Shown here: piece after piece, positions 3,329 to 36,284 of the stretch
Layout of the letters: the number at the start of each line of letters is the position of its first letter
Position numbering within the stretch: position 1 is the first letter of the stretch
Notes under the pieces: model-generated
The model's database searches: none
Seen by the model: only the letters and a program-made list of their open reading frames with translations
Told to the model about the DNA's origin: nothing
Source of the DNA: Escherichia phage KKE7M
Strand: one strand, 5' to 3'
Length of the DNA stretch: 64,000 bases
Sequence record: PQ356295.1
Program-made: the position numbers and the translations under genes

Positions 3329-4071
3329 TGCTAGTATATCAAGAAATTAGTGTAAAAGATGATCAAGACCTGTTTATTATTGGTGATTTACATGGTTGCT
3401 TTGATTTGTACCAGAAAGGTGTTAATACTTTAGGTATCCGAGATCAAGATGTTGTTGTATCTTTAGGAGATCTTACAGATCGCGGCAAGCAGAATTTTCG
3501 TTGTACCGTTGAATTCACCAGAAAGCTAAATCGCTATGGTATTCGTGGAAATCACGAAGATATGATGATTAAAGGGTTGCTAGAAGGTGATAGACGATAT
3601 TACGAATGTTGGTTTCAGAACGGAGGCCATACAGTTCTAAATGAGTGTGGAGAAGAAGGTGCAACTGCTCTTGCTTTGATGCTAGAAGACTTACCTGTTG
3701 TACTTGTTGTCAATTATCGTAATATGAAACTAGGCTTTATTCACGGAGGATATCCTTCAGTTTTGGAACATCTGCCAGTGACGGAAGTTTTGCCATTTTG
3801 TTCGAATATGAATAAAGAACAAGTATCTCGATTCACAGAATCTTTAATGTGGGATCGTGATATGATAGATTGCGCCCTTGAAGGGATTCTTCTTCCTAGA
3901 GTTTCAGGAGTAGATTATGTATTTCACGGGCATTCTTATGTTCCTAAACCTGTGATTAGCAGTAATAGGGTATATATGGATACAGGATCTTGCTTCAATG
4001 GTAATTTAACCTTTGCATATTTTGATGATTCAAATACGTTACAATTTTATTCTACTTTAGAGGAGGACTAA
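3328..4071 (+). CDS. calcineurin-like metallophosphoesterase (Ser/Thr phosphatase-like)
   Basis: GDLHG, GDLTDRG and GNHE motifs in canonical order; GAGGAG RBS. Confidence 0.8.
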   Translation: MLVYQEISVKDDQDLFIIGDLHGCFDLYQKGVNTLGIRDQDVVVSLGDLTDRGKQNFRCTVEFTRKLNRYGIRGNHEDMMIKGLLEGDRRYYECWFQNGGHTVLNECGEEGATALALMLEDLPVVLVVNYRNMKLGFIHGGYPSVLEHLPVTEVLPFCSNMNKEQVSRFTESLMWDRDMIDCALEGILLPRVSGVDYVFHGHSYVPKPVISSNRVYMDTGSCFNGNLTFAYFDDSNTLQFYSTLEED

Positions 4072-5743: not shown

Positions 5744-5766
5744 AACCCGCTTCGGCGGGTTTTTTG
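5744..5766 (+). terminator. rho-independent terminator
   Basis: ACCCGC-TTCG-GCGGGT hairpin followed by TTTTTG. Confidence 0.7.
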
Positions 5767-5795
5767 TTGACAACACCAGTTTTTTCGAATAAACT
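5767..5795 (+). promoter_or_regulatory. sigma70-like promoter (TTGACA-17-TAAACT)
   Basis: TTGACA immediately after terminator, 17-nt spacer, TAAACT; 26 nt upstream of next RBS. Confidence 0.5.
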
Positions 5796-5821
5796 ACAGA
5801 AAAACAGAAGAGGAGATTAGC

Positions 5822-6235
5822 ATGTACTATAGTGACTATTTTGTAAACCCAACAAAAGAACAACTTCAATCGGCAGTGGATAAGATGCAGATTGTAGTTA
5901 AAGAATGTGAGAAAATAAGAAAACAACTACAAGAAGAAACTGTTGTTGTTAATAAATGGTTTGGTCTTAGAAAGAAGGTTGTTAGTAAACACAATATCAT
6001 CCTTGAAAAAGCAAAAACGACAGGGACTAGTTACGCCTTACAAGGCTTGTTGCTAAATTACATTGATATAGAACAACATTCTCTTCTGCACTGTTGGCTT
6101 CACAGTCCTAGTATTGAGGATCTCTTGTTCTGGTTGTCGTGTGAATCTGTACTTTTAAACGAAAATGAGGCTTACCGTTTAAACTTCTGCCTTAAGGCAG
6201 AGTTACCAGCTAGTGTTAAGGAGAAGAAGCAATAA
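5822..6235 (+). CDS. hypothetical protein (137 aa)
   Basis: AGAGGAG RBS 6 nt upstream. Confidence 0.6.
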   Translation: MYYSDYFVNPTKEQLQSAVDKMQIVVKECEKIRKQLQEETVVVNKWFGLRKKVVSKHNIILEKAKTTGTSYALQGLLLNYIDIEQHSLLHCWLHSPSIEDLLFWLSCESVLLNENEAYRLNFCLKAELPASVKEKKQ

Positions 6236-9284: not shown

Positions 9285-10089
9285 AGTCATATTCATAACT
9301 GGCGCAGGACTATCTGTGGATAGCGGTATCCCAGCTTTTAGAACAGATACTTCTTCAGGGGAGGCGTTATGGTCTTCTTATGATCTTTCTGAGGTCTGTG
9401 ACATTTTCAACTTCCGTGATGGTTATCAGCAAGAACAAGGTGTTCTTGATGCTATGGGTGGTTTAGATGCGGAAGGATATAACCTCTACCGTAAAACTCA
9501 CGACTTTTACAATAAACGTCGCGTGGAATTAGCGAAAGTTGACCCGAATCCAGCACATCTTCAGATTGGAGAATGGTTCAAAAAATATGGCCCAGAACGA
9601 ATTCTTAACATTACTACTAACGTGGATGACCTCCTTGAACGAGCAGGAGTAAATAGGGAAGAAGTGCTACATGTGCACGGTTTTCTTCCTGAAATTACTT
9701 TTCAAAGAAAAGCTGGACAACCTACAATTGTAAAAGATGTTGGTTATCAAGCCATAGATGTAGATGACTACCATTATGTAAAACCTAATGTAATTTTCTT
9801 TGGAGAAGCTGCTCCACTTTACACAGATATGTATCATATTCTTGATACACTAACGGCTCAAGATATGGTTGTAGTAGTAGGATGTTCAAACCAAGTTATC
9901 AATTTTAATTGGGAATTATTCCCTGCACTTAATATGGGTACAAAAATGATCGTTGTTAACCCAGGAATTAATTACGAAGAAACTCTTCTTTACGAAGATA
10001 GAGGAGTCTTTGTTTATCGAGAAAAGGCCGCAGATGCTTTTAGCAATCCTGCTTTCATAAAAATGATAGAAGATCATTTGACTAAATAA
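9274..10089 (+). CDS. Sir2-family NAD-binding protein
   Basis: FITGAGLSVDSGIPAFR Rossmann motif (GAGxSxxSGIPxFR) and downstream HVHG catalytic His; AAGGAGGAG RBS. Confidence 0.8.
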   Translation: MPRRVIFITGAGLSVDSGIPAFRTDTSSGEALWSSYDLSEVCDIFNFRDGYQQEQGVLDAMGGLDAEGYNLYRKTHDFYNKRRVELAKVDPNPAHLQIGEWFKKYGPERILNITTNVDDLLERAGVNREEVLHVHGFLPEITFQRKAGQPTIVKDVGYQAIDVDDYHYVKPNVIFFGEAAPLYTDMYHILDTLTAQDMVVVVGCSNQVINFNWELFPALNMGTKMIVVNPGINYEETLLYEDRGVFVYREKAADAFSNPAFIKMIEDHLTK

Positions 10090-22386: not shown

Positions 22387-22747
22387 ATCAGACTCCTTTA
22401 TAAATTTACGTTTCATGCTACACATCATACAGCGTCTTTTCATCTATTACAAGAACAGCAACCTAGAAACATCATTAATAGAGGAATTAGTATAGGATTT
22501 CCCTATCAATTATTCTATATATACCTAATATTTTTAACACACCCCTTTGTACATAATATAGACAAATAAATATCTATGCCACAAAAATTTTCCGGTATAC
22601 CCGATTTATTTCGACACACCCCCTTTTCATAAGCGTAAAGCCAATAATATCAATAACTTGCCGCAAAATACTGCTCGCTTGCGAGAGGTGCTTAACGCGA
22701 TTTTTAGCGCCCCCGATTTCTGCCGACCGTCCCCCTCAAATATCAAT

Positions 22748-22776
22748 GAGAATTATTATCATTTGCATTATCATTC
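22748..22776. promoter_or_regulatory. Fur-box-like AT-rich palindrome
   Basis: GAGAATTATTATCATTTGCATTATCATTC resembles GATAATGATAATCATTATC. Confidence 0.3.
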
Positions 22777-22942
22777 AATGACTTATAAGACTTTTGATTA
22801 TTTTCTGAGCAAGAAAGGCACTACTCACAACAAAACAGATAAATTATAAGTAAATCAATGACTTGGCAAGTCTAAACATCTATATACACCTTGCCAAATG
22901 AAATGATCCTGCGTGAAATAGTGCTACCCGTGGAAGATAGCT

Positions 22943-22963
22943 GATAATGATTATCATTTGCAT
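22943..22963. promoter_or_regulatory. Fur-box-like AT-rich palindrome
   Basis: GATAATGATTATCATTTGCAT. Confidence 0.3.
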
Positions 22964-23272
22964 ATTTTCTATACTATAAAACTACCTAAAAATCAAGATA
23001 ATTCTGATTTATTGCGCTTTTAAGAGAATAGGCTCAACAAATAGGCTATAACTATGCTCAACAAATGATAGGTTATATGGGGCAATAGTATGAAAAACCA
23101 TCTATTCAGATATAAATAATTTTGCGCAATAATGGTGATATTTTTCTTGACAAGAAAGATTTCTTTGTGTTCACATAGCGTCCCCTGGAAGGTGGCGCAT
23201 TATGATCATCAATGTCATTGTTCACGATGTTTATTATTGAATAGCTTATTATATGTAGCTTATATTATAGCC

Positions 23273-23499: not shown

Positions 23500-23826
23500 T
23501 GTATGAAATGATTACGGTATGAAATGATTATTTAGGTAATAGATAGTAAGGTAAAGATTAGATCATAAATAGATAGGATATTAATTATTTAGTAATGTTA
23601 CTAACAATTTAATAGTTACTTTGTGCAACAATTCGATAGATTATAGTTATAGTTTTAAAGGTTAGATAGATTATATTTAGCTTGGTAATGATTTATATTA
23701 GTTATTGTTGTTTAATATAAGGTTATCAATGAGATAGTAACAGTAAGTTATAAATAAAGGTGAAATAATTAGCTTTAATTTAGTTAGATAACTTATTATT
23801 TTATAGGTTAGATGGTCATAAGTTAA
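23500..23826. repeat. AT-rich iteron-like short repeats
   Basis: Dense reiteration of TAGATAG / GGTTAGAT / GATTATA words in about 330 bp without ORFs. Confidence 0.35.
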
Positions 23827-23899
23827 GAATGATTATCATTATTGCATTATGCAGTTTATTGCATAAATAATCAGCTATAAATGAGAATGATTATTATTT
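23827..23899. promoter_or_regulatory. pair of Fur-box-like palindromes
   Basis: GAATGATTATCATTATTGCATTATGC and GAGAATGATTATTATTT. Confidence 0.3.
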
Positions 23900-28408: not shown

Positions 28409-28528
28409 TTAAAACACAATGTATAACAACATGGCTATAGTAGCAATACAACATAAAGCCATGCTTGTTTTCCTTCCTTCCTCGTATGCTGGATTTATTA
28501 CGCTATATTGTACGGGAATAATTTTCAT
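28409..28528 (-). CDS. tiny hydrophobic peptide, about 39 aa
   Basis: AAGGAAACAGC RBS; not in ORF track. Confidence 0.3.
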   Translation of the reverse strand: MKIIPVQYSVINPAYEEGRKTSMALCCIATIAMLLYIVF

Positions 28529-28537
28529 GCTGTTTCC

Positions 28538-28633
28538 TTAATGTCTTAAAACGTGGTTTACAATAGAAACAAGTATACAGAAGAAAAAAGATCCTGACAA
28601 TAAGATCCCGAAAAATAAATGTAAATAGGGCAT
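28538..28633 (-). CDS. tiny hydrophobic peptide, 31 aa
   Basis: AAGGAGTAAAACC RBS 2 nt after upstream stop; codon-by-codon check gives MPYLHLFFGILLSGSFFFCILVSIVNHVLRH. Confidence 0.35.
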   Translation of the reverse strand: MPYLHLFFGILLSGSFFFCILVSIVNHVLRH

Positions 28634-28637
28634 GGTT

Positions 28638-28940
28638 TTACTCCTTAAAAAAATCATTGACAATTAAACTGATAACGCCCAGCACCAGATCACCAGGTAG
28701 CGCCGCGCTTTCGTTGTTGCTTGTTTGCACTTCCTCACTAGTACCAGCATGATAGATTGCATGGTAAGCAATAGTATAATAACCTTTCGTTATTTCTTTA
28801 AGATTAATGATTAGCACGTTATTTGTTTCATCTTGAAACAATTTAGCGGTGATAGTATTGTTTTCTTTTACACTATCGACTTTTATTGATGGATCATTTA
28901 CACCAGAAAAAAGAAAAAACGTTTTAGCTATGCCGTTCAT
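28638..28940 (-). CDS. hypothetical protein (100 aa)
   Basis: AAAGGAGAAC RBS. Confidence 0.6.
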   Translation of the reverse strand: MNGIAKTFFLFSGVNDPSIKVDSVKENNTITAKLFQDETNNVLIINLKEITKGYYTIAYHAIYHAGTSEEVQTSNNESAALPGDLVLGVISLIVNDFFKE

Positions 28941-34385: not shown

Positions 34386-34512
34386 CGTTATCAACCTTTT
34401 ATAAGTAATGTTATTGTGACGGTGGATTGTGGAGATCCTCACCTTTGCCCGTCCTGCATTGCACCCGCCTTTTATTTATTGTCGTTGTGCCTTGCCCCCC
34501 TCGACAAGATGA

Positions 34513-34541
34513 ATAATATGTTATTACCCTGGTAACGTCAA
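34513..34541 (-). promoter_or_regulatory. sigma70-like promoter (TTGACG-17-TATTAT), outermost promoter of reverse array
   Basis: -35/-10 pair followed by about 120-nt GC-rich leader. Confidence 0.4.
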
Positions 34542-34651
34542 CCATTTTTTTAATCTTTTTTCATTTCTTTTTTGCTTGCTATCTATAAAGGAAACGGCTA
34601 TTATCTTTCTACCGCGCCAACCAGGGCGCACATCAAAGAAAGGGCGATACC

Positions 34652-34918
34652 ATGACAAATACTCCTTTACATCTCATGCACTCATTGGGCTGGCAAGGCG
34701 GCACGGTGCACCAGGTAGCAAGCGCAACGGGCTTAAAGGTTGAAACCGTTCTCAACCTGGGCGATCATAAGGTGGAAGAGATAGATCATTTTGATACGTT
34801 CGCAAATGGTTATCTATGGGCTTGCAGTGGCGGCGGGGAAAGCAAGATCCCACCAGGGGCGCGGGGCGACATGTATTTTTGGTTAGGTGTCCTATCCTGG
34901 CAAGAAAACAAAAAATAA
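34652..34918 (+). CDS. hypothetical protein (88 aa), GC-rich codon usage
   Basis: Forward ORF in otherwise gene-free region; weak RBS; composition differs from neighbours. Confidence 0.4.
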   Translation: MTNTPLHLMHSLGWQGGTVHQVASATGLKVETVLNLGDHKVEEIDHFDTFANGYLWACSGGGESKIPPGARGDMYFWLGVLSWQENKK

Positions 34919-34921
34919 TCT

Positions 34922-34950
34922 TGACAAGCCCAGGGATCGGGCTTATACTG
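34922..34950 (+). promoter_or_regulatory. sigma70-like promoter (TTGACA-17-TATACT) driving GC-rich non-coding transcript
   Basis: Consensus -35/-10 with no credible ORF downstream for more than 700 nt. Confidence 0.45.
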
Positions 34951-35180
34951 TTTTACATACAGAAGAGGAAGCGCCACCCCCACGGCGTAAAGGCGGGGCT
35001 AACATACCAGGGGGGCACTGGTTGGAAGGTTGATCGCCGGTAGCTCGTCTAAAATAAATTTGTAAAGAAATGTAAAGATAAAAATAATCGCTTGCTTTTG
35101 TTGTTGGTTATGCTATTCTTATTGTATGGCGAGGGGACACGGGAGCGCGAGACAAACACCACCCCTGCGCGTTATTCTCT

Positions 35181-35292
35181 AAATGAGAAAAATTCTCATT
35201 TGCTAACGATTCTCATTCTCTTACTGAGAATGATTATCACTTACATAATTAAATGATAATGATTCTCATTTACAAATGAGAATGATTATCAT
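35181..35292. promoter_or_regulatory. cluster of Fur-box-like palindromes
   Basis: AAATGAGAAAAATTCTCATTT, GAGAATGATTATCAC and AAATGATAATGATTCTCATTTACAAATGAGAATGATTATCAT. Confidence 0.35.
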
Positions 35293-35313
35293 ACGCACAC
35301 CTATAAAAACACG

Positions 35314-35520
35314 AAATTGAACTTTTCATTTTTGATTTTTCTACGGAAAAAGGCAAAAAAACTTTAAATAAACTGGGGAATTTTTAAAAAATTGAAGTTT
35401 TCATTTTCAAAATCTGGATAGAAATACATACAAAAACTTTAAATAATTTTGACCAAACTTGAACTTTTCATTTTCTAAATTTGTACCCAAAAATCTGTAA
35501 AAACTTTAAATAATTTTGTA
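35314..35520. repeat. three tandem direct repeats of about 67 bp
   Basis: Units start at about 35314, 35387 and 35455; each is AAAtTGAAcTTTTCATTTT ... AAAAACTTTAAATAA. Confidence 0.6.
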
Positions 35521-35732
35521 CTTTTTATAAAAATGATTTTACTGTTCTGTTATAAGTAGTAGTTAAGAGATAGTATGTCTTTTAAAGATCAGATACCATA
35601 GTCCAACAAACAAATTAAATACTTTATTAACAGGGTATAGAATACTACTTACTCTGGATATATTATTCAGAGGGTGAATTTCCGTACATGAAACCCACAC
35701 CCCTTTTTATAAAAATAAAAATTTTCAAAATA

Positions 35733-36284
35733 TCAGGAAATATCAGATTGTGCTTTTAGATAAACAGCAAGGTCTGTATGCCATTTTCCTAAAAGATTTT
35801 GTCCTTTCCAACAATCCTTATTTTCCACGTCACGATCCCACATCCCCATTTTGATACCATAAATAGAATCATAAGGGCTTGCCTCTACGAACTCCTTATC
35901 TGCGTAAGCGATAAGTTTATTTTTGAGATCTTCATTTTGTGTGTATTTAAGATACAAACCACGCTTGACAATCTTCTCCCGTAAAGAAGCCCAAGTATCT
36001 TCATCGTAATCTTTAACTAATCTACCTAGTCGCTTATAATATGCCTGTTCTTTTTCTCCTGTATATCTTAGATCTCCGGTTAAAATAGAAGATGCAATGT
36101 TGTAATCATAAAACAAACATGCTTTTCTCCACATCATATATTGTTCCACACAAGTAAATTCAACAGAACTTGTAATAGAATTATTATACTTGGGTGCTAA
36201 AGGTTCAATAAAAGATGATAGATACCAGTTGCTAAATTCATCTTTTGCTGAAAAGAAGAACACATACTTATCAGTAATCCGCAT
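35733..36284 (-). CDS. NADAR (YbiA-like, DUF1768) domain protein
   Basis: FFF...FSNWY.S.F ... EQYMMWRKA.LFYD pattern of the NADAR family; AAGGAG RBS. Confidence 0.7.
   Translation of the reverse strand: MRITDKYVFFFSAKDEFSNWYLSSFIEPLAPKYNNSITSSVEFTCVEQYMMWRKACLFYDYNIASSILTGDLRYTGEKEQAYYKRLGRLVKDYDEDTWASLREKIVKRGLYLKYTQNEDLKNKLIAYADKEFVEASPYDSIYGIKMGMWDRDVENKDCWKGQNLLGKWHTDLAVYLKAQSDIS

Follow-up and report, generated by a model that had tools for sequence, protein, structure and literature searches.

What would an array of palindromes resembling operators of the host repressor Fur, followed at once by three direct repeats, do in a gene-free stretch of a virulent phage? This question is raised by positions 35181-35520 of Escherichia phage KKE7M, of which we analysed a 64-kb stretch of the record PQ356295.1 (the window; all coordinates refer to it unless another record is named). 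Sequence comparison places the phage among the phi92-like myoviruses (genus Justusliebigvirus, subfamily Stephanstirmvirinae). The cluster and the repeats fall within an annotated gap of 830 bp, in an island of 1.1 kb that is free of open reading frames (ORFs) and conserved across Stephanstirmvirinae and Vequintavirinae, and this island sits at the inner border of a terminal block of small early genes of about 12.5 kb. The reading that we favour, with a probability of roughly 40%, is that the locus forms the core of a conserved control island in which operators for host Fur would gate rightward transcription into a phage-specific repeat array. Judged from their sequence, it is likely that Fur binds the boxes in vitro, and we put a real regulatory role for them at slightly better than even odds.

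The palindromes that the initial annotation had described as Fur-box-like are present as AAATGAGAAAAATTCTCATTT at 35181-35201 and AAATGATAATGATTCTCATTTACAAATGAGAATGATTATCAT at 35251-35292. They were compared with the 9-1-9 model (19 bp, AATGATAATNATTATCATT, 18 specified positions), which is the minimal Fur unit of E. coli (Chen et al. 2007, PMC2189734), and with the 7-1-7 Fur core (TGATAATNATTATCA). Five palindromes, with centres spaced 17-29 bp, make up the array at 35182-35293: box 1 (AATGAGAAAAATTCTCATT, 35182-35200, three mismatches to the 9-1-9 model), the weak box 2 (TTTGCTAACGATTCTCATT, 35199-35217, five mismatches), box 3 (ACTGAGAATGATTATCACT, 35223-35241, three mismatches, with an overlapping site 6 bp along), box 4 (AATGATAATGATTCTCATT, 35252-35270, one mismatch) and box 5 (AATGAGAATGATTATCATA, 35275-35293, two mismatches). 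The 19-bp inverted repeat of a Fur operator (GATAATGATAATCATTATC, or the 9-1-9 model) is thus found in boxes 1, 3, 4 and 5, and the match covers all 18 specified positions, including the outer AAT/ATT. Such agreement is far beyond chance. The 7-1-7 core occurs nine times in the window with two or fewer mismatches, against 1.0 expected (0 of 100 shuffles reach nine), and seven of these nine matches fall within two gene-free islands, the present one and another at 22.4-24.1 kb. Similarly, there are seven matches to the 9-1-9 model with three or fewer mismatches, against 0.21 expected and a maximum of two in 200 Markov simulations of the window.

As a benchmark, 17 kb of MG1655 spanning the ent/fep cluster were scored against the same 9-1-9 model. 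None but the three intergenic regions known to be under Fur control had sites with four or fewer mismatches (3-4). The footprinted fepA-fes, fepD-entS and fepB-entC operators carry 3-5 mismatches, so that "Fur-box-like" proves right in quantitative terms, the phage boxes matching the consensus better than these footprinted operators. The arrangement of the boxes is also that of Fur sites, which form clusters in which adjacent sites are shifted by 3 or 6 bp (Chen et al. 2007, PMC2189734). Offsets of 6 bp were found at 35223/35229, 22745/22751/22757 and 22940/22946, and offsets of 3 bp at 23822/23825/23828. Moreover, the variant half-site GAGAAT that the phages favour also lies within TTGATAATGAGAATCATTATTGACATAATTG, which we take to be the aerobactin (iucA) operator and which lies 33 bp upstream of iucA on more than 800 plasmids. 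A BLAST search with the box cluster as query against 5,426 E. coli genomes was uninformative, giving only short matches at E values of at least 1.

The conservation of the locus is that of a module. Over 901 bases around the cluster and repeats, Escherichia phage 92CQ is 100% identical, and phi92, alia, PD06, BME3, JohannJBalmer and about 50 further Justusliebigvirus genomes are 96-98% identical. In distant BLAST matches, 35105-35201 is 78-90% identical in Phapecoctavirus and in Vequintavirinae of Salmonella (PVP-SE1), Cronobacter, Erwinia and Serratia, with unalignable flanks. The order of elements, compared in fetched Phapecoctavirus and Vequintavirinae loci and in metagenomic relatives, is invariant: a gene for an 88-amino-acid protein (34652-34918, plus strand, phrog_19316), promoter P1, a GC-rich segment of about 100 nt, two TGTAAAGA repeats and promoter P2, then a G-rich leader, one or more Fur-type boxes, three direct repeats, a variable spacer and two to four AAATATCA repeats. 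A Fur-type box is present in every lineage, and Stephanstirmvirinae carry three to four more, 23-29 bp apart. Box 1 is the only one of the five found in all lineages, most often as TGAGAATGATTCTCA. Two metagenomic relatives (L108 and L141) have a perfect 18/18 Fur consensus (AATGATAATGATTATCATT) at the position of box 1, about 130 nt past the ATCGCCGGT motif of the GC-rich segment.

The box motif is kept in phages of Escherichia, Salmonella, Klebsiella, Citrobacter, Cronobacter, Erwinia and Serratia as well as in T5-like phages, in which the 88-aa protein is absent. An unchanged box sequence in seven host genera and in phages lacking this protein fits a binder that is conserved across Enterobacterales. 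The palindromes might alternatively serve as RNA or DNA hairpins, which we disfavour on the following grounds. Among 31 distinct boxes from 20 phage loci, only two are perfectly symmetric and 29 are asymmetric, and in many of them a GAGAAT half is paired with an ATTATC half, which would leave a G-A mismatch in any hairpin. The asymmetry therefore shows the pattern of protein half-sites rather than that of RNA or DNA stems.

On the upstream side, we infer promoter P2 (35092-35119, plus strand; -35 TTGCTT, 16-bp spacer, extended -10 TGcTATTCT) from its conservation across 10 lineages and not from a promoter scan; its -35 element is TTGATC, TTGACC or TTGACT in relatives. It is followed by the conserved G-rich leader (GGCGAGGGGACACGGGAGCGCGAGACAAACACC...CCTGCGCGTTATTC, 35126-35180, plus strand), which is not an ORF, because a frame-shifting indel separates the relatives. 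In Vequintavirinae, a strong promoter, P3 (TTGACA, 17-18 bp, TGnGAxAAT), lies between the single Fur-type box and the first repeat unit, and this box ends 16 bp upstream of the P3 -35 element. The proposed mechanism would work as follows. In an iron-replete cell, Fe-Fur dimers would coat the box array, and the bound array would be a roadblock or occluder for transcription from P2; in Vequintavirinae, the single box would act on the strong P3, 16 bp beyond it. Under iron scarcity, Fur would leave and transcription would proceed into the triple repeat. The triple repeat would then be the regulated target, a phage-specific cis element and most likely a DNA array bound by a phage-encoded factor. 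We favour such a factor for the repeats because their boxes change with the phage lineage, whereas the Fur-type boxes do not. Further downstream, the repeats may serve as an origin-like site of initiation or organisation, or as an insulator between the early block and the remaining genome.

The repeats themselves are well defined. Three direct repeats are there as the initial annotation had noted, each with both of the boxes it had quoted, but the uniform period of about 67 bp that it gave needs correction, since the spacings are 75 and 67 bp (TRF reports a period of 67 with a score of 171). Unit 1 (35314-35388) has box A at 35317-35332 and box B at 35357-35371, with an inverted repeat TTTTTC-tacg-GAAAAA in its core; unit 2 (35389-35455) has box A as a TTGAAG variant at 35392-35407 and box B at 35432-35446; unit 3 (35456-35520) has them at 35459-35474 and 35499-35513, all three units being read on the plus strand. 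Box A (TTGAACTTTTCATTTT) is exact in units 1 and 3 and has one mismatch in unit 2, and box B (AAAAACTTTAAATAA) is exact in all three, with an offset of 40 bp from A to B in every unit. The two boxes are partly inverted copies of one another (TTRAASTTTT) around a variable core that is prone to inverted repeats, and neither has a further occurrence of comparable quality in the 64-kb window. Among seven members of the genus, none of the 93 columns of boxes A and B varies, compared with 7 of 114 in the rest of the units, 2 of 101 in P2 and the leader and 24 of 170 in the AT-rich, poorly conserved spacer downstream (35521-35690).

The initial annotation had suggested comparing copy number across isolates. 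Three units were counted in each of the 17 lineages and loci that we inspected, and despite sequence turnover their period stays between 58 and 90 bp, mostly 64-76 bp; in unit make-up, W70 is exceptional in having four copies of box B, and phAPEC8 in having a degenerate middle unit. Box B differs by lineage: Stephanstirmvirinae have CTTTAAATAA, the PVP-SE1, Cronobacter and Serratia types have CCGATCGAGTAC, and the W70 and Erwinia types have CCTCTCAAGT. Retained unit number and size, combined with a lineage-dependent box B, fit a phage-encoded partner that co-evolves with the repeats, or else a structural role. All units of Salmonella-, Cronobacter- and Serratia-type relatives open with an A5-6T5-6 tract, the junction of which is expected to bend DNA, and end in CGATCGAG, a palindromic motif that contains PvuI and Dam sites.

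Several other identities of the repeats were tried and rejected. They are not three tandem sigma-70 promoters, as no conserved -10 element stands behind the TTGAAC boxes on either strand; the sole promoter-scan match within the repeats is a 9/12 match in unit 2, and the sequence 17 bp past TTGAAC differs among the three copies. Boxes A and B are not a general phage promoter or terminator motif, being confined to the repeats within the 64 kb. A coding sequence was dismissed since the ORFs called in 92CQ are not conserved, the one of 54 aa being broken by indels in relatives. A CRISPR-like array is at odds with conserved parts that are separated by unequal linkers and with "spacers" that, by inspection, are conserved among isolates. 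No known RNA family, tRNA or tmRNA was matched in the window: Rfam gave no match at the gathering threshold, and at E values of 1 or less, 34500-35800 gave one chance match to a plant miRNA, far below its threshold.

Several observations weigh against Fur control of this locus. At half-site position 6, where the Fur consensus has T, the 31 distinct boxes show T 31 times and G 30 times, so that the binder could be something other than Fur. Operators normally overlap the -35/-10 region of the promoter that they repress, whereas the boxes lie 60-170 bp downstream of P2, and Fur acting as a roadblock between +60 and +170 would be out of the ordinary. P2 itself falls below the promoter-scan threshold in the window phage owing to its weak -35 element. 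The central A-run of box 1 is four or five long, with a 1-bp length polymorphism in three of seven genus members, and JLBYU50, which is otherwise 97% identical, has lost two of the five boxes by a 53-bp deletion (its locus 1100-1150 compared with window 35205-35257). This change of spacing and this loss of boxes indicate that box number is not strictly constrained. With regard to a partner for the repeats, the 88-aa protein of W70 is 77% identical while the boxes differ, and that of Klebsiella phi1 is 42% identical while the boxes are the same; the divergence of the 88-aa protein is independent of box type, and nothing marks it as the repeat binder. In the literature, we found no Fur boxes reported for virulent phages, only for prophage cargo operons such as sitABCD.

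The island at 22.4-24.1 kb, said in the initial annotation to share the palindrome family, does have matches at 22745 (one mismatch to the 9-1-9 model), 22940 (two), 23822 (four) and 23880 (two). It also contains the physical genome tips, as the ends of three records map to 22693-23034: the author-annotated, identical left and right 343-bp direct terminal repeats (DTRs) of Salmonella phage UAB_1, another Justusliebigvirus, correspond to this interval, the BME3 record begins at window 22694 and ends at 23034, and the PD06 record ends at 23034. For BME3, a DTR of 342 bp was obtained from PhageTerm (PMC12210895); the "DTR-L" feature of the record is misplaced by 73 bp relative to where the record really ends, and the record duplicates about 830 bp around the DTR. 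The DTR of 342/343 bp at 22693-23034 is thus collapsed to one internal copy in the permuted record of KKE7M. Two Fur-type boxes lie within it (22745-22763 and 22940-22958), 52 and 76 bp from the two tips, and two more lie about 0.8 kb inside the terminus (23822-23840 and 23880-23898). The box cluster at 35 kb is 12.5 kb from the tip at 22693, which is 8.5% of about 147 kb (7.9% in UAB_1 coordinates), and there are only small minus-strand genes between tip and cluster. The proposal that the small-gene array lies between two islands serving as functional boundaries gains support from these positions, the first island holding the DTR and genome ends and the second being a conserved ORF-free module in two subfamilies. 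The exact 148-bp "terminal repeat" of phiWec187 (LC739536), on the other hand, was rejected as an assembly overlap, since it maps to 28506-28653, inside the small-gene array.

A parallel to T5 emerged from the same boxes. The large non-coding region of Gostya9, a T5-like phage, aligns with the cluster (83% over 69 nt) and holds an array of the same boxes beside DnaA boxes (fetched locus 1340-1610), and the cluster is conserved in 576 Demerecviridae records, within the left terminal repeat at about 8-10 kb. Palindromes E, G and I, as annotated in T5 (AY587007) at 9473-9637, are boxes of the Fur type, G (AATGAGAATCATTATCATT) having one mismatch of 18. The "major nick 1, 7.9%" of T5 is at 9661 and the calculated shear point of first-step transfer at 9618 (bioRxiv 10.1101/866236), and the three palindromes adjoin this nick and boundary immediately to the left. 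The T5 literature consulted lists palindromes E, G and I without assigning them a function or mentioning Fur (bioRxiv 10.1101/866236). The injection stop region of T5, or Repeat Region 3 (palindromes E-J and direct repeats C and D in the annotation of Wang et al. 2005; Davison preprint, 10.1101/866236), shares its palindrome family with the window; both regions are ORF-free, rich in direct repeats and more conserved than the neighbouring ORFs, and both lie about 8% from one end of a DTR genome, bordering a block of small early genes on its inner side. Unlike the window phage, T5 has this region inside a 10-kb terminal repeat, with paired DnaA boxes in 131-bp inverted repeats and nine "TGTGCAAATCCGA" repeats, whereas the window phage has a DTR of 342 bp, no DnaA boxes and three 70-bp units instead.

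This parallel leads to the first of the alternatives, namely that the island is a counterpart of the T5 injection stop, a cis-acting boundary at which, about 8% in from the leading end, DNA transfer or early expression would pause, with the boxes as part of the signal. The palindrome family, found in T5 and Gostya9 alike, and the ORF-free, repeat-rich region 12.5 kb (8.5%) from one DTR tip, be it the leading or the trailing end, with the DTR placed by three independent records and the interval holding small genes only, would all agree with such a role. However, two-step transfer is documented for T5-like phages only and is not known for contractile-tailed phi92-/rV5-like phages, the DTR is 0.34 kb and not 10 kb, and no counterpart of the 131-bp inverted repeats with paired DnaA boxes was seen: the window island has no DnaA-consensus box, and the search for long inverted repeats gave the box cluster alone. 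Moreover, the early genes point to the tip, unlike those of Gostya9, a cytoplasmic protein would have no obvious way to halt entry, and the similar percentage may be a coincidence. We regard this alternative as distinctly improbable. A broader form of it, that host-Fur operator arrays are a previously unrecognised landmark shared by large virulent enterobacterial phages, marking the tips and the boundary at about 8% in T5-like siphoviruses and phi92/rV5-like myoviruses, is to us a long shot. If it were true, pre-existing host Fur (with iron) would be a host factor in the injection-stop or early-boundary signal of T5, and in phi92-like phages the terminal 12.5-kb host-takeover block would be delivered or expressed first, in a step of its own that the iron status of the host tunes. 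It is also conceivable, though quite doubtful, that the palindromes are not Fur sites at all but serve another phage or host protein with the optimum TGAGAAT-N-ATTCTCA, or have a packaging role at the termini, their likeness to Fur boxes being the convergence of AT-rich palindromes. The frequency of G at position 6, the usual form of the universal box 1 (TGAGAATGATTCTCA), the two boxes inside the DTR, each less than 100 bp from a cut site, and the T5 authors' own proposal of the palindromes as nuclease targets point this way, but the match across 18 of 18 specified positions with the outer AAT/ATT, the perfect consensus boxes at the same position in two metagenomic relatives and the G variant in the iucA sequence speak for Fur; besides, no protein is known to be common to T5-like and phi92-like phages, the 88-aa protein being absent from the former.

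Two further alternatives concern the repeats more than the boxes. The island may be a replication origin, as the initial annotation had offered among its options, in which a phage initiator would use the units as iterons, transcription from P2 or P3 across a G-rich leader prone to R-loops would activate or prime replication, and the boxes would be accessory sites. Three direct repeats with invariant boxes unique to the locus, A-tract/T-tract junctions in each unit, a region of about 22-32% GC, promoters that fire into the repeats, G-runs right after the start site that are conserved even where the sequence is not, and the short AAACCATTT and AAATATCA repeats further right in relatives are all features that an origin could have, as are the perfect DnaA boxes in Cronobacter and Serratia phages. 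The origin option was nevertheless not confirmed, nor was that of a recombination hotspot, for which no evidence was sought beyond the 53-bp deletion of JLBYU50. There is no change of GC skew at 35 kb (the skew is negative at 24-40 kb and confounded by gene orientation), no initiator gene was identified next to the island, the replication genes being more than 5 kb off and beyond the divergent point, and the analogous T5 region was reported not to be an origin (bioRxiv 10.1101/866236). TTWTNCACA is absent from 34900-35760 and from six other lineages, and DnaA boxes were rejected as a shared feature of the island because they are present in just two of nine lineages. We thus hold an origin to be improbable. 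Another possibility is that the triple repeat acts as RNA, a Fur-repressed non-coding transcript of three modules of about 70 nt made from P2 (P3 in Vequintavirinae), which could correspond, in the phage, to an iron-starvation RNA or could act as a sponge that takes up an RNA-binding protein. In phages of the PVP-SE1, Cronobacter, Erwinia and W70 types, a strong P3-type consensus promoter stops about 10 nt short of unit 1, no ORF is conserved over the repeats, and the unit cores keep their inverted-repeat potential although their sequences differ between the units of one phage. This abutment of P3 on unit 1 makes an RNA role possible, though structure gives no support: the folding of 44 units is barely below that of shuffled controls (mean z of -0.7 for the plus and -0.4 for the minus strand) without strand asymmetry, no Rfam family matches, no clear terminator follows unit 3, and box B has no complementary target within the window. 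The invariant boxes at a fixed 40-bp offset are equally compatible with recognition of DNA by a protein, and we consider the RNA role unlikely.

Returning to Fur operators that gate transcription into a DNA repeat array, comparison with known systems shows both likeness and difference. The Fur boxes of E. coli (iucA, fepA-fes, fepD-entS and fepB-entC) are the same 19-bp 9-1-9 inverted repeat, are also clustered or overlapping at 6-bp shifts and include the GAGAAT half-site upstream of iucA, and the match of the phage boxes is equal or better. Unlike these operators, the phage boxes occur in a strictly virulent phage, in ORF-free islands and inside a terminal repeat, stand off the -35/-10 region, have no iron-related gene downstream and show G and T equally at position 6. 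Iteron-type or transcription-activated origins are exemplified by lambda ori, P1 oriR, T4 oriF/oriG and the T7 primary origin. The island resembles them in that its direct repeats are specific to the locus and intrinsically bent, its surroundings are AT-rich, and promoters fire into it. It differs from classical iterons of about 19-22 bp in its units of about 70 bp and, in the window phage, in having no adjacent initiator gene, skew shift or DnaA boxes. Temperate phages carry Fur-regulated cargo genes, of which stx1 is an example. The sitABCD operon of lambdoid prophages is another case of Fur-regulated cargo in temperate phage DNA (PMC6969025). The likeness to both is that host Fur boxes are embedded in phage DNA, but there the boxes lie over the promoters of iron-related or toxin genes in prophages, while here they flank non-coding repeats and genome ends in a virulent phage.

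If Fur does bind, a strictly lytic phage would read the iron status of its host through the host's own repressor, and would do so at three structurally special places, namely at the two DNA tips, a little way in from one of them, and where the early block has its border. Iron limitation is a dominant condition in the gut and during infection. It would then be linked to phage development, which matters for therapy with phi92-/rV5-type phages. For T5, the host or cis factor at the boundary of first-step transfer has been an open question since the 1960s, and the Fur-type boxes are a simple, testable candidate. Moreover, the triple 70-bp repeat, the promoter-leader unit and a structured-RNA candidate upstream are deeply conserved elements in two phage subfamilies.

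The surroundings of the module can be described more briefly. In correction of the initial annotation, the genes flanking the gap are all on the minus strand, namely a long array of small genes to the left, as annotated in relatives, and a YbiA/NADAR-type gene (35733-36284) to the right. GC skew and the annotation of relatives place the genes of about 10-40 kb on this strand, and the sole plus-strand exception in this 30-kb block is the 88-aa gene. This gene always adjoins the non-coding module and is inverted in one metagenomic relative. An AF2 model of its product (pLDDT 93) has five helices and gave no significant fold match or structural relative. Upstream of it lies a promoter-like site (TTGCTA-17-TATTAT, 34576-34604, plus strand), a 9/12 consensus match alone, and a sigma-70-like promoter (TTGACG-17-TATTAT, 34513-34541, minus strand, 10/12 match) at the left edge of the island faces the small minus-strand genes.

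Promoter P1 (TTGACA-17-TATACT, 34921-34949, plus strand) is an 11/12 match, and its 17-bp spacer is a hairpin (34926-34944) whose stem sequence changes yet stays paired in eight lineages. Since this hairpin is conserved and gives a terminator-like match, the element looks like the terminator of the 88-aa gene and the promoter of the next unit at once. The GC-rich segment (34956-35052, plus strand) has an RNAalifold consensus fold in which one pair covaries between A-U and G-C (4:4). It is conserved from phi92-like to PVP-SE1-, Erwinia- and Serratia-type phages with invariant CGCC...GGCG and ATCGCCGGT, and, being without an Rfam family, is a candidate new phage RNA. The two TGTAAAGA direct repeats (35061-35078, plus strand), 10 bp apart and just upstream of the P2 -35 element, are conserved in both subfamilies, and their layout makes them a candidate site for a response regulator or activator.

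At the right end of the module, AAATATCAGG occurs twice (35728-35746, plus strand), overlapping the stop of the YbiA/NADAR-type gene. All lineages have the AAATATCA repeats, in two to four copies spaced about 10-13 bp, where they overlap the downstream minus-strand gene at its 3' end, and in Vequintavirinae the AAACCATTT repeats stand just ahead of them. At the genome end, a 13-bp tandem repeat (AATAGGCTCAACA, 3.2 copies, 23027-23066) straddles the inner DTR boundary, and its copy number appears hypervariable, as the alignments of BME3 and PD06 break there. Finally, extra units of promoter, GAGACAAACACC-leader and Fur-type box occur in relatives, once directly upstream of co-oriented genes. 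IMG/VR 3300048919_000048 (L079; ~5750-5900 and 3366-3602) has one additional unit in line with the flanking genes and a separate cluster of Fur-type boxes, and the metagenomic relative L063 (340-600) has two promoter-leader-box units in tandem.

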